Below are positions 16,595 to 51,382 of a DNA stretch of 64,000 nucleotides, piece after piece. This DNA is from Minisyncoccota bacterium (GTDB lineage: Bacteria; Patescibacteriota; Minisyncoccia; Phycocordibacterales; UBA9973): the NCBI GenBank assembly GCA_041650615.1, contig JBAZKU010000001.1, positions 23,385 to 87,384 on the forward strand, read 5' to 3'. The translations under genes and the position numbers were made by a program. The notes beneath the pieces are model-generated. The model ran no database searches. It saw only the letters and a program-made list of their open reading frames with translations, and was not told the DNA's origin. Each line of letters opens with the position of its first letter. Within the stretch, counting starts at the first letter, position 1.

Positions 16595-17650
16595 ATGTCG
16601 GAGAATAATACTAAAATCAAACTAGGAATACTTCGAGGCGGAGCAGGAAAACACTATGAATCTTCTTTGCGAAAAGGCGGAGATCTTATTTCGCATATTT
16701 TCAAAAATTTGTCTGATAAGTATAAAACAGTTGATATTTTGATTGACAAAAAAGGCGAATGGCATATTAATGGCGTACCCATAAATCCTGCGGATTTGGT
16801 ACGTAAAGTTGATATCGTTTGGAATACTACACATCCGAATGTTTCTTCTATCCTGCAAAATTTTTCTATTCCTCATATTAGCAATAGTATTTTTTCGTCC
16901 ACATTGGAAAATAGCCGAGAAATGTTAGAAGAACATATAAAAAGCATCGGAGTTCAGATGCCCAGATCCATAATCCTGCCTTTATATCAAAAAGATTTTG
17001 ATGGGACTAGAGAAAGATACGCTATTAAAAAAGCAAAAGAAATTTTTGAAAAATTTGGCTCGCCCTGGATTGTGAAATCTTTTACAAATAATTCCGATAT
17101 GGGTCCCATTAGAGGCCGCGAGGGCTCGCAGCGACCCTCTGCCTCTAACGGGATGGGCATACATCTGGCAAAAACTTTTGGAGAATTAGCGGGAGCGATA
17201 GAAGATGGAGTAATTCATGAAAAAAGTATTTTGATTGAAGAATTTATTTCAGGCAAAGTTGCTTCGGTGCATTCTGTCGTTGGTTTTCGCGGAGACCTGC
17301 CTGCGCAGGCAGGACAAATTTATACTTTTCCTCTGGGCAAACCTTTTGGCAACCCGCCTAGACTCCCGCCTAGACTTGGCGAGGCTGGCGGCGAGGCTGG
17401 TTTTTCTTCCAGTGAAAAAGAAAAATTGATTTCTCTGGCAAAAGATTTGCATAATCATATTGGAGCAAAACATTATTTAAAATCTGATTTTGTTTTAAAT
17501 TCCCGAGGCAAAATTTTTCTTTTAAATATAGAGTCTATTCCTGACTTAAAATCGGACTCGCATTTTTCCCAAGTCTGTGAATCTGTTGGCGCTAAGGCAC
17601 ATCACGTAGTTGAACATATTTTAGAAAGAGCGTTAAATAAGAGTATATAA
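16595..17650 (+). CDS. ddl: D-alanine--D-alanine ligase-like ATP-grasp enzyme with in-frame GC-rich insertions
   Basis: N-terminal IKLGILRGGAGKHYESSLRKG Ddl-like start and ATP-grasp length; about 45 extra residues include PPRLPPRLGEAGGEAG encoded by two tandem 24-nt repeat units. Confidence 0.6.
   Translation: MSENNTKIKLGILRGGAGKHYESSLRKGGDLISHIFKNLSDKYKTVDILIDKKGEWHINGVPINPADLVRKVDIVWNTTHPNVSSILQNFSIPHISNSIFSSTLENSREMLEEHIKSIGVQMPRSIILPLYQKDFDGTRERYAIKKAKEIFEKFGSPWIVKSFTNNSDMGPIRGREGSQRPSASNGMGIHLAKTFGELAGAIEDGVIHEKSILIEEFISGKVASVHSVVGFRGDLPAQAGQIYTFPLGKPFGNPPRLPPRLGEAGGEAGFSSSEKEKLISLAKDLHNHIGAKHYLKSDFVLNSRGKIFLLNIESIPDLKSDSHFSQVCESVGAKAHHVVEHILERALNKSI
17143..17155 (+). repeat. solo distal-arm-like motif CTCTAACGGGATG embedded in-frame inside ddl
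   Basis: 13-nt identity to the family's distal arm, next to a GC-rich hairpin GAGGGCTCGCAGCGACCCTC. Confidence 0.5.
17353..17400 (+). repeat. 2 tandem copies of the 24-nt GC-rich in-frame element (CCCGCCTAGACT)2(YGGCGAGGCTGG)2 inside ddl
   Basis: Same unit as in secA (20386-20409) and typA (50056-50079). Confidence 0.8.
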
Positions 17651-17652
17651 AA

Positions 17653-17723
17653 CGGGCCGTAGTATACCGGTAGTACACGCCCTTCGGGAGGGCGTAGACT
17701 GGGTTCGATTCCCAGCGGCCCGA
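17653..17723 (+). tRNA. tRNA-Pro (anticodon CGG)
   Basis: Acceptor stem CGGGCCG/CGGCCCG, anticodon stem CGCCC/GGGCG with loop TTCGGGA, T-arm CTGGG-TTCGATT-CCCAG; CCA is not encoded. Confidence 0.75.
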
Positions 17724-17892
17724 CATTTTGCTTTAATTCTCCCTTGTTGGTACAATTTACTTATAAAATTGTTTTTATCTGTAGCGGGTGATCGCACTCA
17801 CATAGGCACATATGTTGGAGTTTCGCCATCACCCGCTTCAAATGGAAACAATTTTTTTATTCTAAAACCATTTTTGATTTTCAAAAAGTTAT

Positions 17893-18027
17893 CCCCCACA
17901 CCTACTTTTGTATTATTCTGATTTTTCAATAAAATTACCAAAGTACTTTACATTTTCTCGTAAAAACTCTTTTTTAGGATTATTCTGTTAATAGAATTAA
18001 AAATTGATACAAAAGTAAGTGTGGGGG
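17893..18027. repeat. split member of the CCCCCACACTTATTTT palindrome family: arms 17893-17909 and 18011-18027 separated by a 101-nt AT-rich insert
   Basis: CCCCCACACCTACTTTT ... AAAAGTAAGTGTGGGGG; lies in the 600-bp noncoding region between tRNA-Pro and secA. Confidence 0.6.
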
Positions 18028-18191
18028 TTATCCACAGTTTTGCATAAAAACTTATTGTATTATCTTTTAATATGCGGGATAATTAAAGTGTTCCCGCAAT
18101 AATTATTTAAAAATATTTTTATTGTGTTTAAAAAAGATATTTTGAGGTCGTATTATTGCAAACTAAATTAAAAAATTAATTTAAAACTAAA

Positions 18192-18266
18192 ATGGCAAAG
18201 AAAAAGAAAAAGGCAGCAAAAAAGGGAAAGAAAAAGGCAGCAAAAAAGGGAAAGAAGCGAGCATAG
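18192..18266 (+). CDS. lysine-rich 24-aa small ORF (MAKKKKKAAKKGKKKAAKKGKKRA), speculative
   Basis: ATG..TAG ORF built from two tandem 27-nt repeats, followed by a hairpin and T-run terminator; no SD. Confidence 0.2.
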   Translation: MAKKKKKAAKKGKKKAAKKGKKRA

Positions 18267-18287
18267 TCTTTTCCTACTTCTAAAAGG

Positions 18288-18319
18288 TCTCCTCCGATTC
18301 AAGTCAGAGGGGATTTTTT
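18288..18319 (+). terminator. rho-independent terminator (TCTCCTC..GAGGGGA + TTTTTT)
   Basis: Stem-loop plus T-run downstream of the Lys-rich sORF. Confidence 0.45.
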
Positions 18320-18343
18320 AGTTTTTATGCTAATATACTAATT

Positions 18344-20908
18344 ATGAGTTTATATAGTAAAATATTTGGCGATACCAGTTCCAAATTTATCAAAAATACC
18401 AAAGGAATAGTAGCTGAAATAAACGCTTTAGAGGCTGAAATTTCAAAGTTGGCGAATGAAGATTTTCCAAAGAAAACGCAAGAATTTAAGGATAGACTGG
18501 CAAAAGGCGAGACCTTGGATGATATATTGCCGGAAGCTTTTGCCCTAGTTCGGGAAGCTGCCAAGAGAAATTTAAATGAGAGGCATTTTGATGTCCAATT
18601 GGTAGGAGGAATAGCGTTGCATCAAGGCAAAATCGCGGAAATGAAAACTGGTGAAGGAAAAACTTTAGTGGCTACCTTGCCACTTTATTTGAATGCGCTT
18701 ATGGGAAAGGGCGCGCATCTTGTGACTGTGAATGATTATCTAGCGCGCTTGGGCGCAGTCTTGATGGGTCAAGTTTATAATTTTTTAGGATTGACGGTCG
18801 GAGTTATTAATTCACAAAACGTTTCTTATTTATACGATTCAAAACATACTGAAGAAGATAAAGAACGCGACCGAGTCGGAGAATTTAAAATTGTTTATGA
18901 CTTTCTGAAACCGTGTTCACGCAAAGAAGCATATGGAGCGGATATAACTTATGGCACGAACCATGAATTTGGTTTTGATTATTTGCGAGACAATTTAGCC
19001 ACGTCTATAAATGATATTGTTCAACGAGGACATTTTTTCGCAATAGTGGACGAAGTGGATTCTATTTTAATAGATGAAGCGCGCACCCCGCTTATTATTT
19101 CTTCCGCTTCCGGAGATTCTGAAGATTTTTATGTTAAATTTTATCAAATTGCCAAGCAGTTAAAAAGAGATACCGATTATGAAGTGGACGAAAAATTAAA
19201 AGCGATAACGCTAACGGATGCGGGCATAAGTAAAGCGGAAAATTTGCTCGGGGTGGATAACATATATACCGAAAAAGGCATTAAATATGCGCATCATTTG
19301 GAAACGGCGGTTAAAGCACAGGCTATTTTTGAACGAGATAGGGATTATGTGGTAAAGGAAGGAGAAGTGATCATTGTGGATCCTTTTACTGGGCGTTTGC
19401 AGCCAGGCAGGCGTTGGAGTGAAGGAATTCATCAAGCAATTGAGGCGAAAGAAGGCGTAAAAATAGAAAAAGAAACTCGTTCTTCCGGATCCATCACTTT
19501 CCAAAATTATTTTAGGTTTTATAAAAAATTATCTGGTATGACAGGAACAGCCGAAACTTCTGCCGAAGAATTTTTGAAAGTTTATAATTTGGATGTAATG
19601 GTCATACCTACCAATCGTCCTGTAGTGAGAATTGACCACTCCGATTTAATTTTCCAAAGTGAAACTGGAAAATTTAAAGCTATCGCTAAAAAAATAAAAG
19701 AATTAAATGAAAAGGGTCAGCCGGTTTTGATTGGGACTATCTCCATTGAAAAAAATGAACTCCTGTCCGTTTATTTAAAACAAGAAGGTGTCCAGCATAC
19801 TATTTTGAATGCCAAGAATCATGAAAAGGAAGGAGAAATAATTGCCCAAGCAGGCAAGAGAGGCGCAGTGACCATTGCCACAAACATGGCTGGTCGCGGA
19901 ATTGATATTAAGCTTGGAGGTAATCCCTTAGTGCAAGAAGAATATGAATTTGTAAAAAGTGTTGGGGGTTTGTTTGTTCTTGGGACTGAAAGACATGAGG
20001 CGCGCAGAATAGACAACCAACTTCGAGGCCGTTCAGGCAGACAGGGAGACCCGGGGGAAACGCAATTTTATGTTTCTCTGGAAGATGATTTAATGCGCGT
20101 GTTCGGCTCGGAACGAATAAAAAATATGATGGGACGTTTTGGTATTCCGGAAGATCAGCCAATTGAGAACGGTTTTATAAACCGGTCGCTTGAAAATGCT
20201 CAAGCCAAAATAGAAGGTTTTCATTTTGATGCCAGAAAAAATACTCTTGAATATGATGATGTAATGAATCATCAGCGTCAGATTATTTATGAGAGACGCC
20301 AAAAAATGATGCTTTCCAATAAAGAAGAAGTTGAAGCTTTATTGAAACAAATTTTAGAGAATAGGGAAGAAAAAGAAAAGTTAGACCCGCTTAGACTCAG
20401 CGAGGCTAGAAAAATAATTGAAGAAAAGAGAGAAAAAATAGGAGACGTTAATTTTCTAGAAACTGTCCGCAGGATTGCTCTTTATACTACTGACACTCTT
20501 TGGATGGAACATCTGGAAGCGATGGACTATCTGCGTTCGTCGGTGAACTTGCGCGCTTATGGCCAGCGTGAGCCGATTGTGGAATATAAAAAAGAAGGGT
20601 TATTTATGTTCAAAGAAATGGAAGTAGCCTTTAAAGAGCAGGTTTTATCGCTTATTCAGACAATAAATACCGATATTCGCCCAAGAATAACCATAGAGGA
20701 TAATAGGCCAAAACAAACTTTAGTTACCAGCCATAATGAACCTGAAGAGTTTTCAGATACAAAGAAGGTTATAGAAAAAGAATTAAATATTGGCCGAAAT
20801 GATCCCTGTCCTTGTGGGGCAATTAATCCGGCTACCGGTGAAGTCTATAAATATAAAAAATGCGGTCTCATAAACGCTCCCCAGCATCGCAGGTCGTTGA
20901 TTAATTAA
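18344..20908 (+). CDS. secA: preprotein translocase ATPase SecA
   Basis: Full-length SecA: DEAD-motor motifs (MKTGEGKTLVATL, DEVDSILIDEARTPLIIS), C-terminal zinc finger CPCGAINPATGEVYKYKKCG; contains one in-frame 24-nt GC-rich unit (PLRLSEAR). Confidence 0.95.
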   Translation: MSLYSKIFGDTSSKFIKNTKGIVAEINALEAEISKLANEDFPKKTQEFKDRLAKGETLDDILPEAFALVREAAKRNLNERHFDVQLVGGIALHQGKIAEMKTGEGKTLVATLPLYLNALMGKGAHLVTVNDYLARLGAVLMGQVYNFLGLTVGVINSQNVSYLYDSKHTEEDKERDRVGEFKIVYDFLKPCSRKEAYGADITYGTNHEFGFDYLRDNLATSINDIVQRGHFFAIVDEVDSILIDEARTPLIISSASGDSEDFYVKFYQIAKQLKRDTDYEVDEKLKAITLTDAGISKAENLLGVDNIYTEKGIKYAHHLETAVKAQAIFERDRDYVVKEGEVIIVDPFTGRLQPGRRWSEGIHQAIEAKEGVKIEKETRSSGSITFQNYFRFYKKLSGMTGTAETSAEEFLKVYNLDVMVIPTNRPVVRIDHSDLIFQSETGKFKAIAKKIKELNEKGQPVLIGTISIEKNELLSVYLKQEGVQHTILNAKNHEKEGEIIAQAGKRGAVTIATNMAGRGIDIKLGGNPLVQEEYEFVKSVGGLFVLGTERHEARRIDNQLRGRSGRQGDPGETQFYVSLEDDLMRVFGSERIKNMMGRFGIPEDQPIENGFINRSLENAQAKIEGFHFDARKNTLEYDDVMNHQRQIIYERRQKMMLSNKEEVEALLKQILENREEKEKLDPLRLSEARKIIEEKREKIGDVNFLETVRRIALYTTDTLWMEHLEAMDYLRSSVNLRAYGQREPIVEYKKEGLFMFKEMEVAFKEQVLSLIQTINTDIRPRITIEDNRPKQTLVTSHNEPEEFSDTKKVIEKELNIGRNDPCPCGAINPATGEVYKYKKCGLINAPQHRRSLIN
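20386..20409 (+). repeat. 24-nt GC-rich in-frame element (CCCGCTTAGACTCAGCGAGGCTAG) inside secA
   Basis: Near-identical to the ddl and typA copies, in the same frame and orientation. Confidence 0.75.
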
Positions 20909-20931
20909 AAAACACCACAGAGTGTAAAGAC

Positions 20932-21396
20932 ATGAAAAGAATTCTAACACTTTGCATAATTCATCAACATCCAAGGATATTGCTCGGAATGAAAAAGCGA
21001 GGATTTGGAGAGGGGAGGTGGAATGGATTTGGTGGAAAGATTAAAGAAGGTGAGTCTATTGAAGAAGCGATGAGAAGAGAGATTAGAGAGGAATCGGGAA
21101 TTGAAGTTAAGGATCTAAGTAAAATTGGAATAATGGAATTTAAGCTTGAAAATAATAATGAAATTCAAGAAGTTCACCTTTTTAAAGCAAAAAATTTTAC
21201 CGGAGAATTGATAGAAAGCGAAGAAATGAAACCACAATGGTTTCACATTGATGAAATTCCCTTCAAAGATATGTGGCCGAATGATATATATTGGATGCCT
21301 CTATTTTTAAAAGGAAAAAAATTTAAGGGAAAATTTTCCTTAGGTAAATTTGATGCTGTTCTTGAGCAAGAATTAATAGAAGTTGATATAATATAA
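20932..21396 (+). CDS. NUDIX hydrolase
   Basis: Nudix box GGKIKEGESIEEAMRREIREESGI (GX5EX7REUXEEXGU). Confidence 0.8.
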   Translation: MKRILTLCIIHQHPRILLGMKKRGFGEGRWNGFGGKIKEGESIEEAMRREIREESGIEVKDLSKIGIMEFKLENNNEIQEVHLFKAKNFTGELIESEEMKPQWFHIDEIPFKDMWPNDIYWMPLFLKGKKFKGKFSLGKFDAVLEQELIEVDII

Positions 21397-21399
21397 TTT

Positions 21400-21648
21400 A
21401 TGAAAAAATTAGAAGTTGGGGCAGTTTATAAACATTATAAGGGGACAAAAGCGAAAGTTATCGGCGAGGCGTTTAATAGTGAAACACGGGAGCCGATGGT
21501 TATTTATATTCATTTGGAAGATGGTGTTATTTGGACCAGGCCAAAGAGAATGTTTTTGGAAAATGTGACAGTAAATGGAAAAAAAGTTGAAAGATTTAAA
21601 AAATTAAATCAAAAAATTCTAATAAAACCCGGAAAAAAGCAAGGATGA
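21400..21648 (+). CDS. DUF1653 family small protein
   Basis: YKHYKGTKAKVIGEAFNSETREPMVIYIHLEDGVIWTRP matches the DUF1653 pattern. Confidence 0.45.
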   Translation: MKKLEVGAVYKHYKGTKAKVIGEAFNSETREPMVIYIHLEDGVIWTRPKRMFLENVTVNGKKVERFKKLNQKILIKPGKKQG

Positions 21649-21670
21649 AAAAATAAGGTATTAGGGTATA

Positions 21671-22813
21671 ATGGCCAATATGGAACCACTGGCTTTTAAG
21701 ATTAGACCTAAAAATTTAAAGGAATTTATTGGACAGGAGCATTTAACGGGCAAAAATAAGCCTATTTCCGTGGCTATTGAGAAAAAACATCTTTTTTCTT
21801 TCATTTTTTGGGGTCCGCCGGGAGTTGGAAAAACAACCCTTGCCAAAATTTATGCCAAAGCATTAAATGCAGATTATCACGAACTTTCGGCAGTTTCGGC
21901 AGGAAAGGATGATATTCGTGAAATATTGGAATCGGAAGGAGCTTTGTTAGGCCCAAAAATTCTTTTTCTTGATGAGATACACAGATTTAACAAAGCGCAA
22001 CAGGATTTTCTTTTGCCGTTTGTAGAGAGTGGCAGACTTACTTTAATTGGGGCAACGACAGAAAATCCAAGTTTTGAAGTAATTCCAGCTCTTCTTTCTC
22101 GCATGCGGGTTTTTGTGATGAATGAACTTTCAGATGAAGAGATGAAAAAAATTGTCAAGCGTACCGGTTATAAAATAAAAAAGGATTCTCTAGATTGGCT
22201 TATCGGAATGTCCTCAGGTGATGCTAGACAAGCAATCGCCATGATTGAAAATACTATTTCTCTCTATAAAAATATTACTGTTGATAATTTAAAAAATACT
22301 CTCCAATCAAAATTTTTGCGTTATGACAAAAAAAGCGAAGAGCATTATAATACTATCAGTGCTTTTATAAAAAGTATGCGCGCTTCACAACCAGACGCGG
22401 CTTTGTATTATTTATCACGAATGTTGCAAGCGGGGGAAGATCCGAAATTTATTGCTCGCCGGATGGTAATATTTGCCAGTGAAGATATCGGCTTGGTGCA
22501 ACCGACTGCTTTAGTAGTGGCCAATGCGGTATTTCAGGCAGTGGATACAATTGGAATGCCGGAATGTGGAGAAAATCTGGCTCATGGGGTAGTCTATCTT
22601 ACTCAAGCCAAAAAAGATAGAAGCGCCTATAATGCATATCTGGAAGCGATGGAAGATGCAAAAAAATATGGAAATTTGCCAATCCCGATGAGTATTCGGA
22701 ATGCCCCCACGAAATTAATGAAAGATTTGGGTTATGGAAAAAATTATGAAAAATATACGAAAGAAAATTTGATGCCGGATAAATTAAAAAATAAAAAATA
22801 TTTTAAAAAATGA
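21671..22813 (+). CDS. rarA: replication-associated recombination protein A (RarA/MgsA AAA+ ATPase)
   Basis: Walker [20 protein letters not shown], and the C-terminal MgsA-C segment [20 protein letters not shown]. Confidence 0.85.
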
Positions 22814-24048
22814 AAACTTTAATTAAAAAACTAAAAACAATCTGGTGGAGAATCAAATCAATCGCAGCAATGCATTATTATGGTAATCCGTCCTCAAAGT
22901 TAAAAATTGTCGGAGTAACAGGCACTAATGGAAAAACTACGACAGCCACGCTTCTTTATAAAATAGCAACCGCTTTAGGCTATAAAGCAGGGCTTATCGG
23001 CACAGTGGAAAATATAATTGCAGGGGAAAAGAGAGGAGCTACGCATACTACACCCGATTCTATTTCTTTAACTAAACTTCTGAAGGAAATGGTAGAAAAA
23101 GGTTGCGAATATGTTTTTATGGAAGTTTCTTCACATGCTTTGGATCAAAAACGTGTTGCGGGAATAAATTTTATCGGCGGAATTTTTACAAATTTGACGC
23201 ATGATCATCTGGATTATCATAAAAACCTAGAAAATTATTTTCTGGCTAAAAAGAAATTTTTTGAAATACTTCCTAAAAATTCTTTTGCCCTTTCGAACAT
23301 TGATGATGAATATGGCGATGTTATTTTAGAAAATATCAAAGCGGAAAAATTCTTTTACGGTTTTGGAGAAGAAACAGAAATGATAGATTTTTACGGCAAA
23401 ATTTTAAAACTGAATTTCTCAGGGCTGGAGCTTGATTTTAATGGAGAAAAAATAAATTCAAAACTTTTGGGCAAATTTAACGCTTATAACCTGCTCGCTG
23501 TCTGGAGCGCTTCAAAGCTTATTGGTTTTGATATTAAAAAGGTAAATAAAATTTTAGAGAACATAGAACCTCCTCGAGGGAGATTTGAACACTTTTTATC
23601 TTCAGATGGTGTCCTTATCATCATAGATTATGCGCATACGCCGGATGCGCTGGAGAAAATTCTCTTGACGGTAAAAGAAATGAAACCTGAAAACGGAAGA
23701 ATAATTTCTGTTTTTGGTTGCGGGGGAAACCGCGATTCAACGAAGCGTTCCAAAATGGGAAAAATCGGAGCAAATTTATCCGATATTGCCATTTTTACAT
23801 CAGATAATCCTAGAAACGAAGATCCGAATAAAATTATTGAGCAAATGAAAGATAATTTGTCTCACGAGGAATCAAAAAAGGTAATAACCATTTCGAATCG
23901 TCGGTTAGCGATAGAGGAAGCAGTAGAGATGGCAAAAAATGGAGACATAATTCTTTGTGCCGGCAAAGGTCATGAAGAATATCAGGAAATCAAAGGTGTA
24001 AAGCATCATTTTAATGATATGGAAGAGTTTAAAAAAGTTTTAGATTAA
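22810..24048 (+). CDS. murE: UDP-N-acetylmuramoyl-tripeptide ligase MurE-like (short form)
   Basis: VTGTNGKTTT, HTTPDS, MEVSSHAL and TNLTHDHLDYH are Mur ligase motifs in MurE arrangement; N-terminal domain reduced. Confidence 0.7.
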   Translation: MKTLIKKLKTIWWRIKSIAAMHYYGNPSSKLKIVGVTGTNGKTTTATLLYKIATALGYKAGLIGTVENIIAGEKRGATHTTPDSISLTKLLKEMVEKGCEYVFMEVSSHALDQKRVAGINFIGGIFTNLTHDHLDYHKNLENYFLAKKKFFEILPKNSFALSNIDDEYGDVILENIKAEKFFYGFGEETEMIDFYGKILKLNFSGLELDFNGEKINSKLLGKFNAYNLLAVWSASKLIGFDIKKVNKILENIEPPRGRFEHFLSSDGVLIIIDYAHTPDALEKILLTVKEMKPENGRIISVFGCGGNRDSTKRSKMGKIGANLSDIAIFTSDNPRNEDPNKIIEQMKDNLSHEESKKVITISNRRLAIEEAVEMAKNGDIILCAGKGHEEYQEIKGVKHHFNDMEEFKKVLD

Positions 24049-25370: not shown

Positions 25371-25371
25371 A

Positions 25372-27649: not shown

Positions 27650-28765
27650 TTACTCAAGATATACCAATGTCATCTTGTGTTCTTTAGGTTCAAATAATGT
27701 AATTTGGAAATTGTAATTTTTACCAAGTTCTAGTTTTTCACGAAGTTTTGTTTCTCCGCCAAAAGTTGAATTATGCACGAGACCTGCTACGCCTTCCTTT
27801 ATAGAAACCAACGCGCCGTGTTTATTGTATTTAATTACGACACCTTTAATAATGTCACCTTTTTTCAATTTCCCTTCAAATTCTGTCCAAGGATTTTCCT
27901 TCAACGCTTTAATGGAAAGTGAAATTTTACCGTCTTTTATTTCAATTACTTTTGCGCGGACCTTATCATCTACTTTAAACATAGTGCGGGGATCTTCTAC
28001 GAGGCCCCAATCAAGTTCGGAAATATGCACAAGACCTTCCAATCCATCTTCAAGTTTTAAGAAAATTCCAAAATCCACAATTCCGGCAACCGTACAATCT
28101 ACTTCATCCCCCACATTATATTTGCTCAGAATTTCCTTTTTCTCTTCAGGATTATTATCTTTCTCGGAAAAGATTAATTTACCTTCCTTGGGAAGGGTGG
28201 AGATAATCATTACTGAAATTTTTTCGCCTACCAATTTCTTTAATTCTTTTAATATCTTGTCTTTATCCGAATCCAAAACGCGAGGATAATGGTCGGCTTT
28301 AAGTTGGGAAGCGGGCAAAAATCCTTGTATACCCTGCCATTCTAAGATTAATCCTCCCTTATTTGCATCTTTTATTTCCAGTTCTAGAACAGTTTTTGCT
28401 TTTATAGCTTTTTCGGCTTCGCTCCAAGTAAGCGCTTGTTTGGCTTCCTTGAGAGAAAGTTCCGTATATCCATTTTCATTTTCTACCTCAACGACTTTCG
28501 CCTTGATAATATCGCCGAGACTTATCTTTTTAATAATGTCTTTGGCATTGATAAATTCACGGCCGTAAATGATGCCTGTGCCAAAGGGCGATAAATCAAC
28601 AAAAACAGATGATTTTTCCACTAAAATTACCGGACCTTCAACCAGAGAATCAACCTCTGGCTTGCTTTTGCTTCGGTCAACGATAGATTTCAGCACTAAG
28701 TTCTCTTTAAAATTTTCTTCTACCTGCCCCGACTGGTCAAGGCGGGCTGTTTCTTCTTTCTTCAT
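27650..28765 (-). CDS. rpsA: 30S ribosomal protein S1 (4 S1 domains, short form)
   Basis: Four tandem S1 OB-fold repeats (GDIIKAKVVEVE.., GDEVDCTVAGIVDFGIFLKL.., GDIIKGVVIKYNKHGALVSI..). Confidence 0.75.
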   Translation of the reverse strand: MKKEETARLDQSGQVEENFKENLVLKSIVDRSKSKPEVDSLVEGPVILVEKSSVFVDLSPFGTGIIYGREFINAKDIIKKISLGDIIKAKVVEVENENGYTELSLKEAKQALTWSEAEKAIKAKTVLELEIKDANKGGLILEWQGIQGFLPASQLKADHYPRVLDSDKDKILKELKKLVGEKISVMIISTLPKEGKLIFSEKDNNPEEKKEILSKYNVGDEVDCTVAGIVDFGIFLKLEDGLEGLVHISELDWGLVEDPRTMFKVDDKVRAKVIEIKDGKISLSIKALKENPWTEFEGKLKKGDIIKGVVIKYNKHGALVSIKEGVAGLVHNSTFGGETKLREKLELGKNYNFQITLFEPKEHKMTLVYLE

Positions 28766-28906
28766 AATAATATCTTAAACAAAAAAATCCGCTAAGAAGC
28801 GGATATAAGGCTTAGGTTCTAATTTGACTTGTGTCTCCTTAGGGTTACCCTAAATCCTGCTTTTAATATATTAAAGTAATCTTACTATAATTATATAAAA
28901 AAGCAA

Positions 28907-28945
28907 GCCCCTACACTTATTTTTTTCAAAAATAAGTGTAGGGGC
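28907..28945. repeat. palindrome GCCCCTACACTTATTTTT-TTC-AAAAATAAGTGTAGGGGC, a member of the CCCCCACACTTATTTT family
   Basis: 18-bp perfect arms; lies between divergent gene starts (rpsA at 28765 and the 28959 gene), so it is not placed as a terminator. Confidence 0.7.
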
Positions 28946-28958
28946 AAGTATTTTCATT

Positions 28959-33001: not shown

Positions 33002-33026
33002 GATGTCAAAGTGTCTCTTTGACATC
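33002..33026. repeat. REP hairpin GATGTCAAAG-TGTCT-CTTTGACATC at the 3' end of the RAYT gene
   Basis: 9-10 bp perfect stem; near-identical copy at 33642-33664. Confidence 0.7.
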
Positions 33027-33632
33027 AAAATTTAGTGTTTCTTTTATAAAGCTATTTTGATTACCAAAAACTGAAATTAGTAGTTCTTTGTTAATTATTG
33101 GCAAGTTTCTATTAGAAGAAAAATCTTGATAGCTACTCCATTTGTAATCTTCGGGAGTTTTTACCAATCTATCTTTTACAGGATTCATATGAATATAAGC
33201 CGATGTCCACATGAGTTGAGGATTATTTTCCATAAGTACTGCCTTAAAACAATCTTGAAAAGTATGTCCGGCACTATCATATTTATTATTTATGTATTTA
33301 GAATAACTGGCACATACCTTTGAAATTAATTTTGAAATTGGAATATCTCCAACTTGTTCAATCAGTAAGTGAAAGTGATTTGGCATTAAACAGAATGTAT
33401 GCAATTTAAAATTATTTTTATTTATGTTAGTAATTCTAATTCTTGAATAGGGTATAGCAATTAATTTTTCTTTATTTAATTCTTCTTCGGTAAATCCCAA
33501 ACAAAGTCCAAGTCTAAAAAGAAAAGCCCTATAATCTTGTTCGTCAAAAAATATTTTTTTCTTGTTATTACCTCTGTTATAAATATGGGCAATTGATCCG
33601 CTATTGAATTTTTTATAGTCTCTATTATTCAT
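33006..33632 (-). CDS. REP-associated tyrosine transposase (RAYT; IS200/IS605 Y1-transposase-like)
   Basis: HuH motif CLMPNHFHLLIE and C-terminal NPVKDRLVKTPEDYKWSSY typical of RAYT; flanked by REP hairpins. Confidence 0.7.
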   Translation of the reverse strand: MNNRDYKKFNSGSIAHIYNRGNNKKKIFFDEQDYRAFLFRLGLCLGFTEEELNKEKLIAIPYSRIRITNINKNNFKLHTFCLMPNHFHLLIEQVGDIPISKLISKVCASYSKYINNKYDSAGHTFQDCFKAVLMENNPQLMWTSAYIHMNPVKDRLVKTPEDYKWSSYQDFSSNRNLPIINKELLISVFGNQNSFIKETLNFDVKETL

Positions 33633-33641
33633 TATTATATT

Positions 33642-33664
33642 ATGTCAAAGTGTCTCTTTGACAG
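33642..33664. repeat. REP hairpin ATGTCAAAG-TGTCT-CTTTGACAG just upstream of the RAYT start
   Basis: Near-identical to the 33002-33026 copy. Confidence 0.7.
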
Positions 33665-36924: not shown

Positions 36925-36931
36925 TTGGCTT

Positions 36932-36970
36932 GCCCCCACACTTATTTTCCCTTAAAATAAGTGTGGGGGC
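36932..36970. repeat. palindrome GCCCCCACACTTATTTT-CCCTT-AAAATAAGTGTGGGGGC, a member of the CCCCCACACTTATTTT family
   Basis: 17-bp perfect arms between pilin-like paralogs 3 and 4; may act as a terminator here. Confidence 0.7.
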
Positions 36971-37056
36971 TTGCATTACTTATTTTGTTTTTTGTGATAT
37001 AATATGGGTATATTATTATTAGGTCGCTTTTATTATTAATATTATTATAAGAATTT

Positions 37057-42461: not shown

Positions 42462-42473
42462 ATTGTTTTACTT

Positions 42474-42929: not shown

Positions 42930-42953
42930 ACGTTTTCAATATATACTATTTTA

Positions 42954-44162: not shown

Positions 44163-44165
44163 GGC

Positions 44166-44936
44166 ATGGATATCAAAGATTTAAATAAACCGCAACTTAT
44201 AATGGTTGCATTATTACTTTCCTTTGTCACTTCAATCGCGACAGGTATTACGACAGTGACTCTAATGCAGCAAGCGCCTTCATCCGTGACTGTGCCTATC
44301 AATCGTATTGTTAGGCAGACAGTTGAGAAAATAGTGCCAGTCGAAGGGAAGAGCCAGACAGTTATCATTAAAGAAGAAGATTTAGTAGTAGATGCTATTG
44401 CAAAAAATAAATCAGCAATTTTTTCCGTAACCAAAGAAATAAAAGATTCATATGGTGCAATTACTGAAATTTCTTCCGGGCAAGGATTTGGGGCCACTGC
44501 TGACGGTATTATTGTCGCTGATGGTTCATCTGTGTTTGAGAATGGCACTTATTATGTAAAAAATGACAGTGGAAAATTTAATGCAACCTTCATCTCTTTG
44601 GATAAGAATGGATTTGCTTTCCTTAGGATAGGAACACCGCTCAATGTGGAAGATAAAGCTGCTTTCACTGTACCCGCTTTTGGGGATTTGAGTAAAATGA
44701 AAGAAGGACAGAAAATTTTAGTTTTAGGTAATACAATATCTTCTTTTATTTTTGATGGAAATAAGGATATAAAAATCAGTAATGCAAAATCAAATGGGGG
44801 CGGGCTGGTGCTTGATTTGGACGGAGAAGTATTAGGAATTGTTCTTTCTGGCGATACCATATCTTTCAGTCCGATTGATTCAATTGCAGAAGCTCTAAAA
44901 GCGATAACTCCAACGACTGGAACCGCAACACCATAA
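44166..44936 (+). CDS. trypsin-like (HtrA-like) domain protein, probably catalytically inactive
   Basis: SNGGGLVLDLDGEVLGIVLSG aligns to the GNSGGPLLDLSGNVVGV serine-loop of the htrA gene at 5589, but the nucleophile Ser position is Gly; N-terminal TM helix. Confidence 0.35.
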   Translation: MDIKDLNKPQLIMVALLLSFVTSIATGITTVTLMQQAPSSVTVPINRIVRQTVEKIVPVEGKSQTVIIKEEDLVVDAIAKNKSAIFSVTKEIKDSYGAITEISSGQGFGATADGIIVADGSSVFENGTYYVKNDSGKFNATFISLDKNGFAFLRIGTPLNVEDKAAFTVPAFGDLSKMKEGQKILVLGNTISSFIFDGNKDIKISNAKSNGGGLVLDLDGEVLGIVLSGDTISFSPIDSIAEALKAITPTTGTATP

Positions 44937-44997
44937 AATAAACTTAAAAGTTTTGGATTTACATTTTATAAACTTTTAACTTTATAACTTATTATAT

Positions 44998-47685
44998 ATG
45001 CCACCACTTCATAAATTTACAACTAAATCAAAAGATGCAATCAAAAAAGCTCATGAGCTTGCCATTGAACGCGGACAAAACCACGTCTCTTCTTTACACC
45101 TGCTTGCTGCTTTATTATTGCAAGAAGAAAGTATGGTAAGTTCTATTTTGGATAAATTGGAAATAGATACTGTTTTTTTAACTGATTCTATTTTAGAAGC
45201 AATTGAATCACCGGAATCTAATAGCACTCTTTCTCCGGCATACCAAATTTATCTCAATCCTGATTTGGCGCAGGTCATAGAGCATTCGGTAAAGCTGGCA
45301 GAATATATGAAAGATGATTTTGTTTCAACCGAGCATCTTTTTATTGCCATGCTGGAAGTGGCCGGAGAAGCGCGCGAGATTTTGGCACGATTCAGAATTC
45401 TAAAAGATCCGGTGATGAAAGTGTTGGAAGAACTTCGCAGTCAGAATATTACCGATGTGACAGAACCAAAAAGATTCAGATTGCTTTTGAAATATACTCG
45501 TAATTTAACCAAACTGGCCAAAGAGGATAAATTAGATCCGGTTATCGGACGAGACAATGAAATAATGCGCATCATTCAAATACTCTCTCGCCGAACTAAA
45601 AATAACCCGATTTTAATAGGGGAAGCTGGCACGGGCAAAACAGCGGTAGTGGAAGGTCTGGCGGAGCGTATTGCAAAAAATAATGTTCCTGAATCTCTGA
45701 AAGATAAAGAGCTTGTTTCTCTTGATCTGGGCTCGCTTATAGCCGGTACAAAATATCGCGGGGAATTTGAAGAAAGGTTAAAAGGTATAATGAAAGAAAT
45801 AGAAAGAGCTGACGGAAAAGTAATTCTTTTTATTGATGAAATTCATACAATTGTCGGAGCCGGGGGTTCGGAAGGAACAATGGATGCTTCAAATATGCTA
45901 AAGCCCGCGCTTTCTCGCGGAGAATTGCGGGCCATAGGCGCAACTACTCTTAAAGAATATCAAAAACACATTGAAAAGGATCCGGCTCTAGCTCGTCGTT
46001 TTCAGCCTGTTTATATTGATGAACCTAGTGTGGAAGATGCTATCGCAATACTTCGCGGACTTAAAGAAAGGTATGAATTATTCCACGGTATTCGCATTAC
46101 CGACGATAGTATAATCGCGGCCGTAAACCTTTCTACTCGTTATGTAACAAATAGATTTTTGCCGGATAAAGCGGTTGACCTTATAGATGAAGCTTCTTCT
46201 TCTTTGAAGATTTCTCTTGAGAACAAACCTCCTGTTTTGGAGGATGCTCATAGAAGAATAATGCGTTTGGAAATTGAAAAAGAAGCACTCAAAAAAGAAA
46301 TTGAAAATGACTCGAAAAAAAGCAAAATTACCAAGAATAGAATAAAAGAAATAGATAAAGAGATAGCCAATTTGCACGAAAAAACAAAAGAGCTTGAGTT
46401 AAAATGGCAGAATGAAAAAGAAACTGTGATTGAGATTCGTTCAATTAAAAAAGAACTTGATGTAATGCGTCTTCAGGCTGAAGATGCGGAAATGAAATCA
46501 GATTTGTCTCGCGCTGCGGAAATACGTTATGGCAAAATACCTGTCTTAAAAAAAGATTTGGAGGTAAAACTTTCGCGCTTGCAAAAACTTCAAAAGTCGC
46601 GAAGGATTTTGAAAGAAGAAGTTACTGCGGAAGATATTGCCGAAGTAGTGGCGCGTTGGACCGGCATTCCGCTTACTAAAATGCTTGAAGAAGACCGTGT
46701 AAAATTGCAAAGGATGGAAGAAGAATTAAAAAAGAGAGTAATGGGTCAAGATGAAGCTATTAAGCGTGTCAGTGACGTGATTCGTCGTTCACGCGCGGGA
46801 ATAGGGGACCCGGACAGGCCAAATGGTTCATTTATATTCTTGGGTCCAACAGGAGTTGGCAAGACGGAGCTCACCAAAGCCCTAGCCCAATTTATGTTCA
46901 ATGACGATAGCGCGCTTATCAGAGTGGATATGTCTGAATATATGGAAAAGCACTCGGTATCAAAACTTATCGGCTCACCTCCGGGATATGTAGGTTATGA
47001 CGAAGCAGGACAGCTTACCGAATCTGTCCGACACCGCCCGTTTTCTGTAATCCTTTTTGACGAGATTGAAAAAGCTCATCCGGAAGTTTTTAATATGTTG
47101 CTTCAAGTTATTGACGAAGGAAGATTAACCGATGGCAAGGGGAGAGTGGTTAATTTTAAAAATTCCATTATTATTCTCACTTCCAATATCGGTTCGCAAT
47201 TCATAGAAAAAATGGAATCAATTGGATTTTCTAATAATTCCGACAAGCAAGATTACAGTAATATGAAAGAAAAAGTACTAGAAGCGATGAAGGATCATTT
47301 CCGTCCGGAATTTATCAATCGCCTGGATGAAATTATTGTTTTTGATATTCTTTCAGAAGAAGCCATAAAAGAAATAGTTAATTTGAGAATGAAAGTGGTA
47401 AAAGAAAGACTGGTTGCCAAAGATATTGATTTTAAGATTTCCGATGAGGCGCTCTCATACTTGGCAAAAGAAGGATATAATCCGCATTATGGCGCAAGAC
47501 CGCTTAATCGCTTAATTCAAAATAAGATTTTAAATCCAGTTGCTTCATATATTATCTCCAATGATATGAAGAAAGGGGATACGGTTTTTGTTTCAGTAAA
47601 AAATAATGAACTGCTTATTGAAACTAAAAAAACAAAAATAAAAAGCCCGATTCGCATGCGTTCCAGTTCTACAACCAAAGCGTAA
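44998..47685 (+). CDS. clpB: ATP-dependent chaperone ClpB
   Basis: Clp N-domain, two AAA+ modules ([18 protein letters not shown]), long middle coiled-coil domain, and sensor-2 region. Confidence 0.9.
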
Positions 47686-47692
47686 AAAATAA

Positions 47693-47723
47693 AAAAACCG
47701 TCTTTGAAACAGACGGTTTTTTG
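47693..47723 (+). terminator. rho-independent terminator (AAAAACCGTCTTTGAAACAGACGGTTTTTT)
   Basis: GC-containing stem plus T-run after clpB. Confidence 0.65.
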
Positions 47724-47742
47724 TTGTTTGGAAAAACAGCTT

Positions 47743-48138
47743 TTACCCTACAGGATACCATTTCTTGGATTCCTTTTTGGGAGGCAGAAAACGAATGATT
47801 AATAAAGATATAACTATATTATAAGTAGCTGTTAATCCCAATATTATCAAGAAAAACATTTTGTATATGTTACCAGCGATTGGAAATTCTTTCGGAATAA
47901 AGAATGAAGTTAACATTGCGGATAAAAGGCCTATTGTAGCAATAAATATCTGTTCATTTCTTTCCATTATGTCTCCAATGGATGGGATTCCAATAGATAT
48001 TACATTTAAAATGGTTATGAAAATGAACAAGATTGGGTTATTCAGAGAAAAAACTACAAATATAGGGTCCACAGTATTACAGCTAGCCAATCCCAAGGAA
48101 AGTAGGATGATGTTAAGGCATAGTAAAAAGTATCTCAT
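47743..48138 (-). CDS. hypothetical 4-TM membrane protein
   Basis: Hydrophobic ORF; 4-nt overlap with the upstream ACP-like gene. Confidence 0.3.
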   Translation of the reverse strand: MRYFLLCLNIILLSLGLASCNTVDPIFVVFSLNNPILFIFITILNVISIGIPSIGDIMERNEQIFIATIGLLSAMLTSFFIPKEFPIAGNIYKMFFLIILGLTATYNIVISLLIIRFLPPKKESKKWYPVG

Positions 48139-48407
48139 TTTTTATCTCCTTCTTTAGATAATTTTTTTTCTATAAGGTTAACAATATCTTGAATAGTGCT
48201 CCCCCCTCCCACTTCTTCGTCTGATATTTTTATACCAAAAGCTGCTTCGATTTCCATCACAATTTCGACAAGGTCGAGCGAATCAGCGCCCAAATCCATT
48301 ATAGGAATAGCGCTAAGAGTTATTTCGCTTTCAGCCCGATTTAATTTTTTAATAAGAATTATAGTAATTCTTTTCAAAATTTCTGACTGTTTCATTAGTT
48401 CCTCCAA
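48135..48407 (-). CDS. acyl carrier protein-like (phosphopantetheine attachment D-S-L motif)
   Basis: LGADSLDLVEIVMEIEAAFGI matches the ACP 4'-phosphopantetheine site. Confidence 0.6.
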   Translation of the reverse strand: MEELMKQSEILKRITIILIKKLNRAESEITLSAIPIMDLGADSLDLVEIVMEIEAAFGIKISDEEVGGGSTIQDIVNLIEKKLSKEGDKK

Positions 48408-48488
48408 TATTTAGTTTTCAAAATTATTTTTTTTAAAATAAATACAAATTTAATTACCAAAAGAATACCATTTTATATGGTACGAGTC

Positions 48489-48502
48489 AATGTGCGCCGG
48501 GT
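48489..48502. repeat. 14-nt direct duplicate (TGCGCCGGGTAGGA) of the tRNA-Tyr 3' end, 155 bp from the tRNA
   Basis: Identical to 48658-48671; att-site-like scar. Confidence 0.6.
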
Positions 48503-48621
48503 AGGAATTTCTCGCCCTACGGTCGCGGGTGCTTTTCTATCTCGCTACGCTCGCAAAGAAAAGCCTTTCGAACCCTACACGGAAGCAAAGCAGTTTGCTT
48601 CCTCTCGGCGAGACATAAATT

Positions 48622-48650
48622 AAAAAGCTTGAGCAGAAGCTCAGCTTTTT
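48622..48650 (-). terminator. bidirectional rho-independent terminator (AAAAAGCTTGAGCAGAAGCTCAGCTTTTT) 3' of tRNA-Tyr
   Basis: Stem-loop with flanking A-run and T-run. Confidence 0.55.
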
Positions 48651-48657
48651 AATTTTG

Positions 48658-48740
48658 TGCGCCGGGTAGGATTCGAACCTACGTAGCCCGAAGGCGACAG
48701 ATTTACAGTCTGTTGTAATTGACCACTCTACCACCGACGC
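48658..48740 (-). tRNA. tRNA-Tyr (anticodon GTA), class II
   Basis: The reverse complement reads GCGTCGGTGGTAGAGTGGTCAATTACAACAGACTGTAAATCTGT..CGCCTTCGGGCTACGTAGGTTCGAATCCTACCCGGCGCA. The anticodon loop is CTGTAAA. Confidence 0.75.
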
Positions 48741-48893
48741 ATTCATACAAAATAACACAAAATAACTTTTTTTGCATCTTTAGGATAATTACAACTTTTG
48801 ATGTAATTGACAAAACTACTATAATTTGTTATTTTTAGCTCCAATAACTAGATCTTTTAAAATTGAAATTTTCACTTTTGGAGGAATGAAAAA

Positions 48894-49310
48894 ATGAAAA
48901 AATTTCTATGTGGTTTTGTTTTGTCTGCTGTTTTTATATTGATATTGTGTACTTTGGGTGCAATAGCCGGTGGAAATTCTTCATTTTCCGCAAAGCATTC
49001 CTTAGAACAGCTGGGAGAATATTTTTTGTTTCTCGTCATGAGTTTGGCTTTTCTTGGCTTATATTTTACTTTTCTTGACAATGAATTAAAAAGCAAGTTA
49101 AAAGAAAAGGGGGAATTAAAAATAATTGTTTCTGGTTATATTTCCGTGCTCTTTCTTCTTCTTTTTTTAATAGGAGAGCATCCCATAAGGACAAATAAAT
49201 ATATTTTGATAATTATTACTATCATAGGTATATATAATTTTATAGTATCTTCAATTCTTTTGATTTCAAAAAAGTTTCCCCGGAGGACTCTTTCAGAAAA
49301 TGGTACTTAA
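48894..49310 (+). CDS. hypothetical 4-TM membrane protein
   Basis: Hydrophobic ORF followed by a terminator. Confidence 0.3.
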   Translation: MKKFLCGFVLSAVFILILCTLGAIAGGNSSFSAKHSLEQLGEYFLFLVMSLAFLGLYFTFLDNELKSKLKEKGELKIIVSGYISVLFLLLFLIGEHPIRTNKYILIIITIIGIYNFIVSSILLISKKFPRRTLSENGT

Positions 49311-49330
49311 TATGTTCATAATAAGCTTCC

Positions 49331-49358
49331 AAAGCCGACACTAAGTCGGCTTTTTATT
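49331..49358 (+). terminator. rho-independent terminator (AAAGCCGACACTAAGTCGGCTTTTT)
   Basis: Stem plus T-run. Confidence 0.6.
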
Positions 49359-49410
49359 TTTTTTGTTATTTTAAGAAAAGTATGCTATTATTTTATTTAG
49401 AAAATTAATA

Positions 49411-49517
49411 AACGAAGTGAATATAATTTTCTTAACCCTGTTAAATAATTTTTGCTTCGCAAAAATTGCCTAAAGGCATTTAACAGGGTGATGATTTTTA
49501 TAATCACTTCGTTTTTT
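49411..49517. repeat. about 107-nt nested imperfect palindrome immediately upstream of typA
   Basis: AAACGAAGTGA..TCACTTCGTTT outer arms, ACCCTGTTAAAT..ATTTAACAGGGT inner arms, central TTTTGCTTCGCAAAAA palindrome. Confidence 0.5.
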
Positions 49518-49528
49518 AAAAATCAATC

Positions 49529-51382
49529 ATGGAAATTAGAAATATTGCAATTATCGCTCATGTAGACCATGGCAAGACGACACTGACGGATGCCTTGATG
49601 AAACAAAATGGGGGACTTCAAGACGAAGGAATATCAATGGACTCAAATGCTCTGGAAAAAGAGCGTGGTATTACTATTTACTCCAAAAATACTTCTATCA
49701 CTTACAAAGGGACCAAGATAAACATTGTAGACACTCCTGGCCACGCTGATTTTGGTTCGGAAGTGGAACGAGTATTGCGCGCTGTTGATTCTGTGCTTTT
49801 ATTGGTAGATGCGGTAGAAGGACCAATGCCCCAAACTAGATTTGTCTTAAAGAAGTCTTTAGAATTAGGTATTAAGCCTATAGTTGTTATAAATAAAATA
49901 GACAAACCGGCTTCCGACCCGCATCGAGTGCATGAAGAAATTTTAGATTTATTTTTTGAATTAGGAGCAAGCGAGGAACAGGCAAATTTTGAAACAGTTT
50001 ACGCGATAGGACGCGAGGGAAAAGCTTTTAAGCACTTAGGAGATAAAAGTAAAGACCCGCCTAGACTCGGCGAGGCTGGTTTATCTCCGCTTTTGGATTT
50101 GATATTAAAATTCGTGCCTTCAGCTTCTTTAAATAAAAGTGGAAAAATGTCCGCGCAAGTTTTCAATTTGGGGTATGACAATTTTTTAGGCCGTCTGGCT
50201 ATTGCCCGAATTTATTCTGGGAAAATTTCTTCTCCCTCTCAAGTTTTTATAAAAGGAGAAACAGGAAGCCGAACCGGAAAGATAACAAAACTTTTTACTT
50301 TTGAAGGAATAAATAGAAAAGAAGTTTCTGCGGCAACAGCTGGCGATATTATTCTTTTAGCTGGGATACCGGATATTTATATTGGTGAAACTATTTGTGA
50401 AGATGAAAGCGTGGAACAATTGCCTCATATAGCAATTGATGAACCTACTTTGTCGCTTAATTTTTTAGTAAATGATTCTCCATTTGCCGGCCACGAAGGG
50501 AAGTTTATTACCTCTAGGCAGATAAAAGAAAGATTAGAAAAAGAACTTGAAATAAATGTCGGGTTGAAAGTTGATTTTTCTCCAGATCAAGGAGACAAAA
50601 TGGGTCCAAGTTTTTTCAAAATTTACGGAAGAGGAGAATTACATATTGCCATTCTTTTGGAAAACATGCGCAGAGAAGGATTTGAAATGCAAGTTTCTCA
50701 GCCGGAAGTTATTATCAAAGAAAAAGGCGGTGTTAAAACGGAGCCCTACGAAGAATTAGTAATTGACGTGCCGATGGAATTTTCCGGAACAGTTATAGAA
50801 AAAATTAATAAACGAAAAGGAATAATGAAAGATATGATGGAGAAAGAAGGCATTGGTAGAATTATTTTTGACATACCAACGCGGGGGCTTTTGGGGTATC
50901 GGGGAGAATTTATCATAGATACGAAAGGGGAAGGCATAATGTCTTCGCGAGTTACAGGTTTTAGAGAATATGCGGGAGAAATAAAAAAACGCGAATATGG
51001 TTCCATGGTCTCTATAGTCTCTGGCAAGGCAGTAGCTTTTTCCCTTGCAAATTTGCAGCAACGTGGTATAATGTATATTGAGCACGGCACGGAAGTGTAT
51101 GAAGGGATGGTTATCGGCAATGTCTTAAAAGGAGACGATATGTCGGTAAATCCCACTAAAGGGAAACAGCTTACCAATATGCGTGCATCCGGGACCGATG
51201 AAGCTATTTACTTAAATCCGGCCTTTGTTTTAAGCATTGAACGGGGGTTGGAGGTGATGAATGGCGATGAATATTTGGAAATTACTCCAAAGTCGGTGAG
51301 AATTCGTAAAAAGTATCTGACTGAACTTGATCGAGTAAAAGCAGAGAGAAAAAAAATTAAAAAAGAAGTTAATTTACCTTGA
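49529..51382 (+). CDS. typA: translational GTPase TypA/BipA
   Basis: IRNIAIIAHVDHGKTTL, DTPGHADF, NKID; EF-G-like domain order without domain IV; contains one in-frame 24-nt GC-rich unit (PPRLGEAG). Confidence 0.9.
   Translation: MEIRNIAIIAHVDHGKTTLTDALMKQNGGLQDEGISMDSNALEKERGITIYSKNTSITYKGTKINIVDTPGHADFGSEVERVLRAVDSVLLLVDAVEGPMPQTRFVLKKSLELGIKPIVVINKIDKPASDPHRVHEEILDLFFELGASEEQANFETVYAIGREGKAFKHLGDKSKDPPRLGEAGLSPLLDLILKFVPSASLNKSGKMSAQVFNLGYDNFLGRLAIARIYSGKISSPSQVFIKGETGSRTGKITKLFTFEGINRKEVSAATAGDIILLAGIPDIYIGETICEDESVEQLPHIAIDEPTLSLNFLVNDSPFAGHEGKFITSRQIKERLEKELEINVGLKVDFSPDQGDKMGPSFFKIYGRGELHIAILLENMRREGFEMQVSQPEVIIKEKGGVKTEPYEELVIDVPMEFSGTVIEKINKRKGIMKDMMEKEGIGRIIFDIPTRGLLGYRGEFIIDTKGEGIMSSRVTGFREYAGEIKKREYGSMVSIVSGKAVAFSLANLQQRGIMYIEHGTEVYEGMVIGNVLKGDDMSVNPTKGKQLTNMRASGTDEAIYLNPAFVLSIERGLEVMNGDEYLEITPKSVRIRKKYLTELDRVKAERKKIKKEVNLP
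50056..50079 (+). repeat. 24-nt GC-rich in-frame element CCCGCCTAGACTCGGCGAGGCTGG inside typA
   Basis: Same unit, frame and orientation as the ddl and secA copies. Confidence 0.8.

Follow-up and report, generated by a model that had tools for sequence, protein, structure and literature searches.

How does the same short GC-rich block of DNA come to lie, in frame, in three essential genes of an AT-rich bacterial genome? The question is raised by a 64,000-nt stretch from a Minisyncoccota bacterium (assembly GCA_041650615.1, contig JBAZKU010000001.1, positions 23,385 to 87,384, forward strand), hereafter the window, in which a 24-nt unit, CCCGCCTAGACTCGGCGAGGCTGG, occurs within ddl, secA and typA. 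The unit is probably a 24-bp (8-codon), GC-rich, imperfectly palindromic, non-autonomous mobile element. The element is real and widespread, and probably active. The copies and their host genes are as follows.

16595..17650, + strand: ddl, encoding a D-Ala-D-Ala ligase-like ATP-grasp protein (Pfam PF07478)
17353..17364, + strand: left half, CCCGCCTAGACT, of the outer ddl copy (half-unit search)
17365..17388, + strand: inner ddl copy, T13 variant, central in the outer copy (1 mismatch)
17389..17400, + strand: right half, CGGCGAGGCTGG, of the outer ddl copy (half-unit search)
18344..20908, + strand: secA (Pfam SecA domains; PDB matches)
20386..20409, + strand: secA subfamily copy, CCCGCTTAGACTCAGCGAGGCTAG (3 mismatches; adds DPLRLSEA)
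49529..51382, + strand: typA/bipA (Pfam; BipA structures match at E = 1e-175)
50056..50079, + strand: canonical 24-bp element in typA (exact match; read as PPRLGEAG)

Copies in the window

The window was searched for the 24-mer with up to 3 mismatches, using 100 dinucleotide-preserving shuffles as the control. Three matches were found, all on the + strand, at 50056-50079 (0 mismatches), 17365-17388 (1) and 20386-20409 (3); the chance expectation was 0 matches across the 100 shuffles. A preliminary description of this DNA had placed GC-rich 24-nt units in ddl, secA and typA, and had held that in such AT-rich surroundings they are no artefact of composition. Both statements stand, the G+C content of the window being 35.7%. 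There are 4 units per 64 kb, all genic.

The two units in ddl had been described as tandem. When the 12-nt arms were searched separately, CCCGCCTAGACT was found at 17353 and 17365, and YGGCGAGGCTGG at 17377 and 17389. The 48-nt block at 17353-17400 is therefore ordered left-left-right-right (A-A-B-B), which means that the pair is nested, not tandem: the T13 variant splits a canonical outer copy precisely at the T12/C13 junction. The T13 variant accounts for 6 of 100 copies elsewhere, among the matches listed in the genome scan described below, and the secA variant CCCGCTTAGACTCAGCGAGGCTAG was found identically in L002, L139, L144, L145, L152 and L155. The units encode PPRLPPRLGEAGGEAG in Ddl, (D)PLRLSEA(R) in SecA and PPRLGEAG in TypA, in agreement with the peptides PLRLSEAR and PPRLGEAG read earlier from secA and typA.

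Empty, filled and decayed sites

Judged by comparison with orthologous sequences, all three window units are real, recent, lineage-specific insertions. Opposite PPRLGEAG, E. coli BipA and the other BipA proteins with solved structures have a gap of exactly 8 residues. Of the 120 TypA sequences closest to the query (85-93% identity), 118 lack the unit, the only carriers being the query and P0034. The two do not share a similarity cluster, and the closest relatives of either are without the unit. About 112 of the 120 nearest Ddl homologues lack it, including the closest (81% identity); in P0124 one copy occupies the site used in the window, and a few others have degenerate versions. The SecA insert is unique among the 120 nearest homologues (at least 117 of 120 are without it). 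Thus the alignments bear out what had been claimed from the window alone, that these are lineage-specific in-frame insertions into conserved genes: the closest TypA, Ddl and SecA orthologues do not have the residues, nor do unrelated ones such as E. coli BipA.

At the DNA level, a precise 24-bp gain is seen in each gene. The empty ddl site GGCAAT|TTC (L128) corresponds to GGCAA-[24]-TTTTTC when filled; the empty secA site CTG|GAAAAAATA (L127), which translates as EKL|EKII, corresponds to TTAGA-[24]-AAAAATA; and the empty typA site GAC|CTT (L122, L126) corresponds to AGA-[24]-TTTATC. No target-site duplication was found in these comparisons of typA, ddl and secA. The ddl site offers a whole series: empty in L128, a single uninterrupted canonical copy in L127, the nested double copy in the window, and a decayed copy with 7 transitions in L129. 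Decayed or differing inserts of 21-27 nt occupy the same junctions in the relatives L124, L125, L129 and L156.

Translation of the inserts

Among the matches listed, 62 of 103 24-nt copies (~60%) lie inside open reading frames (ORFs) of at least 150 codons. These genic copies use all four stop-free frames on both strands, read as PASPSLGG (24 copies), PPRLGEAG (21), RLDSARL (10) and SLAESRR (7). Only about 2 doubtful cases fall in a frame with the internal TAG, against 62 in open frames, so the avoidance of this stop that was first noticed in three genes extends to the whole set. Since the genic copies are confined to stop-free frames, the element is evidently translated rather than removed by splicing or bypassed. 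Most centre-length variants have a length that is a multiple of three, and decayed copies are still in frame and coding. The uniform frame and orientation reported for the three window sites hold for those sites only, where the chance probability is about 1/16; across the 103 copies, four frames and both strands are used.

The inserts had also been assigned to loops. In AlphaFold models, the TypA and Ddl inserts form coil with a predicted local distance difference test score (pLDDT) below 50, directly before a helix, consistent with the assignment; the models are poor overall (pLDDT 51 and 59) and serve for such local statements only. The SecA insert lies in a length-variable segment without alignment to solved SecA structures.

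Distribution across genomes

A species-representative genome collection was scanned once with a near-exact pattern in which the centre could vary. Many further copies exist beyond the window: the 24-mer was found in at least 118 contigs from at least 91 assemblies, one of them a single-cell genome (L076). Among the matches listed, the carriers are mostly Patescibacteria, namely Paceibacteria, Moran-, Falkow-, Giovannoni-, Levy-, Gottesman-, Ryan- and Liptonbacteria, and Saccharibacteria. Copies per genome are low in number and dispersed on large contigs. Of the copies listed in unique contexts, 89 of 100 are identical to the consensus, and very few intermediate copies were seen in ~1 Mb of fetched DNA. 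No match was found in 2.9 million viral contigs. A literature search for the 24-mer sequence, its peptides and the concept returned nothing.

Some of the listed carriers are labelled as lying outside the candidate phyla radiation (CPR): Gammaproteobacteria, Bdellovibrionales, Ignavibacteriales and Bathyarchaeia. The "Bathyarchaeia" label of L018 is a binning error, because this contig is identical to the Moranbacteria contig L065. The other carriers with non-CPR labels show only moderate protein similarity to CPR loci. Public taxonomic labels are unreliable here. A few carriers suggest that some genuine non-CPR hosts exist: L023, which is a 2.9-Mb chromosome, and L013 and L057, labelled Ignavibacteriales, in which the carrier gene is a secreted glycoside hydrolase. 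A further case of doubtful labelling is the TypA protein P0032, which is 88% identical to the CPR protein of the window and is labelled Burkholderiales.

Landing sites and recurrence

The copies cluster with themselves and with related palindromes. Among the matches listed, a copy abuts another head-to-tail in 10 of 121 unique contexts, and in 21 of 121 it sits in the centre of a related GC palindrome, for example CCCGCTTCG...CGAGGCGAG or CCCGCCTCGATT|CGGCGAAGCGGG. The tandem or nested rate at random positions is 0.3%. A strict search for perfect flanking stems gave little signal (5% around copies vs 1%). The base at -1 is a purine in 83% of the copies and that at +25 a pyrimidine in 92%.

The same orthologous site is filled in two lineages in each of three genes, typA, ddl and the glycoside hydrolase. 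Between the two carriers the element differs at 1, 0 and 0 of 24 positions, respectively, and the flanks differ by 35-42% (P <= 4e-5 each); flank divergence was taken from an ungapped comparison of the surrounding 180 nt, which may somewhat overstate it. Carriers that share a site have closer relatives than one another. Most simply, the pattern reads as recent and repeated insertion at preferred positions, followed by decay toward AT.

Palindrome mosaics were also encountered in the Patescibacteria genome MAG223 (L003, L019, L020, L031, L037, L072, L079, L092), where intergenic arrays of short GC-rich hairpin modules, such as GTCACCCCCGCGAAAGCGGGGGTC and TTTATCCCGTCGGATGACGGGAC, embed the 24-mer as GCCAGCCAGAGG[24]CTGGC. 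The arrangement resembles that of arrays of bacterial interspersed mosaic elements (BIMEs).

The hairpin and the search for mobilizing machinery

As folded, the 24-nt unit has a bulged stem of 6 bp, with pairs 1-20, 2-19, 3-17, 4-16, 5-15 and 6-14. It starts with CCCG and finishes with CTGG, and a GTAG or CGTC tetranucleotide tag is absent from the unit ends and flanks. T6, A14 and A23 mark a recurrent subfamily that includes the secA copy; in it, pair 6-14 has changed from C-G to T-A. A metagenome scan for non-C6 variants gave 26 stretches: T6-G14 in 12, T6-A14 in 8 and A6-G14 in 6.

The window contains a Y1/IS200-like transposase gene at 33006-33632 on the - strand, which encodes 208 aa. Its Y1_Tnp domain is matched in Pfam at E = 8e-11, and it scores 62 bits against the NCBIfam model REP_Tyr_transpos, below the cut-off of 80. 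A hairpin of its own, TGTCAAAGTGTCTCTTTGACA, stands on either side of the gene; TGTCAAAG-TGTCT-CTTTGACA, a perfect hairpin, is present in two direct copies, 33004-33024 and 33643-33663, and nowhere else in the window. A relative that carries a typA copy also has a Y1 gene, and Y1-like genes occur in 5 of ~144 copy-holding loci. The hairpins seen flanking such genes were TGTCAAAG-TGTCT-CTTTGACA, CGTTAGG-TCTTG-CCTAACG and GGACATC-CGATGTCC. A link between the element and Y1 or REP-associated tyrosine transposases (RAYTs; REP, repetitive extragenic palindromic sequence) was rejected as unproven, every examined Y1 gene having its own, different flanking hairpins.

A larger parent element, consisting of the 12-nt arms around a long cargo, was sought at all loci; only centre variants of 27-48 nt were found, none of them autonomous. 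No Rfam or other known RNA family lies over the intergenic copies. Origin from a conserved RNA, such as a tRNA or rRNA fragment, was discarded as a source, since it appears to give no match.

A working mechanism and its rivals

The comparisons show that i) the element enters DNA as a precise 24-bp block without target-site duplication; ii) it lands preferentially beside, or in the exact centre of, itself or related GC palindromes; iii) the same nucleotide position of the same gene has been struck repeatedly in separate lineages; and iv) the inserted copy then decays by GC-to-AT transitions. In the mechanism proposed here, movement would be in trans, the enzyme being specific for sequence and structure and recognizing the hairpin, and this recognition requirement would keep the consensus constant across hosts. 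[quoted passage not shown] Genic copies presumably persist since 24 bp keeps the frame and four of the six frames are without stops. The insert would become 8 flexible residues (PPRLGEAG, PASPSLGG, xRLDSARLx or xSLAESRRx), which should be harmless in loops.

Several observations weigh against a mobile element of this kind. No mobilizing gene was found, and when all nearby ORFs were clustered, no gene family was enriched near the copies. The Y1 genes of the window, L119 and L143 are each bracketed by private hairpins unrelated to the 24-mer. Orientation relative to local GC skew, a weak proxy, is 50:55; this lack of bias does not fit a single-strand mechanism at the replication fork, as in the IS200/IS605 type. 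The stability of the hairpin is at the level of shuffled sequence (z = -0.6), and the covariation at pair 6-14 is no more than suggestive. No defined target motif was found beyond R at -1 and Y at +25 (a Y-G-R | Y preference). Because a near-exact pattern was used to retrieve the copies, their near-invariance is subject to an ascertainment effect. Reuse of the same site could in part reflect survival only in permissive loops.

A bolder form of the proposal is that one near-invariant 24-bp sequence is inserted over and over at specific positions of conserved genes throughout the Patescibacteria radiation, and occasionally in other phyla, by insertion machinery that would be sequence-specific, passed horizontally between hosts and free of target duplication. 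This is only a tentative possibility, with the odds against it. If true, this would be the smallest known active mobile element, diversifying protein loops in minimal genomes.

The rival nearest in kind is a REP/RAYT-type system, in which the 24-mer would be a REP-like hairpin moved by a genome-encoded Y1/HUH protein, for example that of the gene at 33006-33632. The size, the imperfect hairpin and the seamless insertion fit, as do the Y1_Tnp protein of the window, the Y1 gene of the relative with the typA copy and the Y1-like genes at 5 of ~144 loci. Yet the examined Y1 genes are flanked by unrelated hairpins, the NCBIfam score is below 80, there is no GTAG/CGTC tag, 60% of the copies are genic, copies per genome are few, strand bias is absent, and one sequence is common to very distant hosts while REPs are species-specific. 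Such a system is therefore unlikely. Less likely still is a DNA or RNA motif, such as a protein-binding site or a DNA-uptake or segregation signal, that is kept by selection and not by mobility. This would account for the element's being much more conserved than the coding DNA around it at orthologous sites, and for near-invariance across phylum-level distances; but the 24-mer arises as a 24-bp gain and not by substitution, most close relatives lack it, and same-site copies have decayed (by 7 transitions in L129; there are differences in L124, L125 and L156 too). Copies are often tandem or nested, the few copies per genome are dispersed, and no Rfam family covers the intergenic ones.

Two further explanations would take the inserts out of the mature proteins or out of the genomes altogether. 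The unit could be an intervening sequence that is removed after transcription or skipped in translation, as a mini-intron or like the mitochondrial 'byp' elements, leaving proteins without the 8 residues. There is a precedent in the AT-rich mitochondria of Magnusiomyces, where GC-rich hairpin inserts in genes are bypassed. For an insert of that sort, however, frame and stops should not matter, yet open frames outnumber doubtful stop frames 62 to ~2, lengths are mostly a multiple of three, and decayed copies remain in frame and coding; the explanation is very improbable. An assembly, binning or library artefact is hardly credible at all. It is true that all sources are metagenome assemblies and that some labels are wrong (L018 being identical to L065), but the same insertion is found in independent samples and assemblers (4 contigs for P0034, 7 for P0124), the single-cell genome L076 has the element, its flanks are contiguous and in frame, and decayed copies exist. 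A translated, non-autonomous mobile element remains the preferred reading.

Comparison with known systems

The element resembles Rickettsia palindromic elements (RPEs), REPs and the GC clusters of yeast mitochondria, but it fails the defining tests of each. Like the 24-mer, RPEs are palindromic repeats that lie in frame in protein genes, essential ones included; they are translated, tolerated at the protein surface and have no known autonomous partner. RPEs are ~100-150 bp long (30-50 residues), are restricted to Rickettsia and have diverged copies, whereas the present element is 24 bp long, near-invariant, without apparent sequence similarity to them, and found in a few other lineages besides many classes of Patescibacteria. 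Its length of 24 bp is enough to exclude it from the families RPE-1 to RPE-10. The comparison with RPEs drawn in the preliminary description is thus apt as an analogy, for in-frame and translated inserts, and does not extend to membership, given the length and the Patescibacteria hosts.

REPs and REPINs (REP doublets forming hairpins) share with the element a GC-rich imperfect hairpin of 20-40 nt, clusters and mosaics of palindromes, and seamless insertion. REPs are, however, extragenic, present in hundreds of copies, species-specific, tagged with GTAG/CGTC and found flanking their own RAYT, none of which is seen in the present element. The GC clusters of yeast mitochondria and the double-hairpin elements of fungi are short GC palindromes in an AT-rich genome, located between genes, in rRNA, and in frame in var1. 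They are like the 24-mer in their presence/absence polymorphism and nesting, and in that their mobilizing activity is not known. They differ from it in being organellar, 30-60 bp long, divided into several unrelated classes and often flanked by short repeats.

Palindrome-associated transposable elements (PATEs) derived from IS200/IS605 are likewise hairpin-based, with precise insertion and excision and no target-site duplication. Their two end hairpins differ from each other, a fixed tetra- or pentanucleotide lies 5' of the insertion point, and there is a replication-strand bias, in contrast to the single hairpin, weak R|Y preference and lack of strand bias seen here. MITEs derived from DDE transposons leave a target-site duplication beside terminal inverted repeats, and there is none for the 24-mer in typA, ddl or secA. 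DNA uptake and uptake signal sequences (DUS/USS) reach very high copy numbers by substitution, unlike the 24-mer with its 4 units/64 kb, for which the examined cases are all 24-bp gains. Introns and bypass elements are indifferent to frame and stops; the 24-mer lies in genes almost only in stop-free frames.

The 16S rRNA hairpin and other inserts

A GC hairpin in the 16S rRNA, CCCCCGCCTTAG...TTAAGGCGGGGG, had been proposed as a relative of the 24-mer. The hairpin is present at 15888-15952 as described, in place of helix 40, and forms an expansion of ~65 nt whose stem is GC and whose interior is AT-rich. The link to the 24-mer, in contrast, is unsupported. The likeness amounts to ~9 bases and is seen in the window genome only; the relatives L127, L129 and L068 have helix 40 expansions at the same place with unrelated sequences. 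Since the expansion differs in sequence in every relative examined, the 9-base likeness is no evidence of a shared origin.

The host genes contain other GC-rich inserts. A second, unrelated in-frame insert of 54 nt in ddl, at 17098-17151, is read as MGPIRGREGSQRPSASNG; of the 120 nearest Ddl homologues, ~17 have a near-identical peptide. An ATGGG...ATGGG direct repeat on either side is target-duplication-like, and the insert appears to represent another mini-element family. In secA of L129 (~8827-11403) and in several SecA homologues, other recurrent short inserts occupy the segment in which the element lies: a 27-nt GC element read as ASPVGLWPR, which is 9 nt upstream and resembles the reverse complement of the 24-mer, and a peptide family, RNAFSI(A/V)DAGGE.

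Elsewhere in the window, mnmA (55712-57016) has a 93-nt GC-rich stretch at 56182-56274 with at least 2 hairpins, GTCAAGGG..CCCTTGAC and AAGAATGC..GCATTCTT. This segment is wholly different in length and sequence among three close relatives and is probably a hot spot for other mini-inserts. A 24-nt GC palindrome, CCCGCCTTGACCAGTCGGGGCAGG, at 28723-28746 on the - strand, near the 5' end of the ORF at 27650-28765, has 6 mismatches to the element; it may belong to the family as a distant member within another gene. Between genes, at 10147-10189, 28905-28947 and 36930-36972, lie 43-nt palindromes of one family, CCCNCACACTTATTTTT...AAAATAAGTGTGNGGG, which look like shared terminator hairpins. A cobalamin riboswitch at 5289-5463 on the - strand (34.8 bits vs the Rfam gathering threshold of 31.5) is unusual in so reduced a genome.

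Significance

If the unit is a mobile element, streamlined CPR genomes carry an active 8-codon element that edits essential proteins without inactivating them: SecA, TypA and Ddl here, with UvrC and GrpE as candidates in other genomes. Its presence or absence would be a datable marker for recent gene flow among uncultured lineages, and its insertions a natural experiment on insertion-tolerant protein loops. Annotators would also be warned that what looks like short, GC-rich 'low complexity' in a CPR protein can have its origin in mobile DNA. Seamless, site-recurrent and hairpin-centred insertion would, moreover, point to an undescribed DNA insertion activity.

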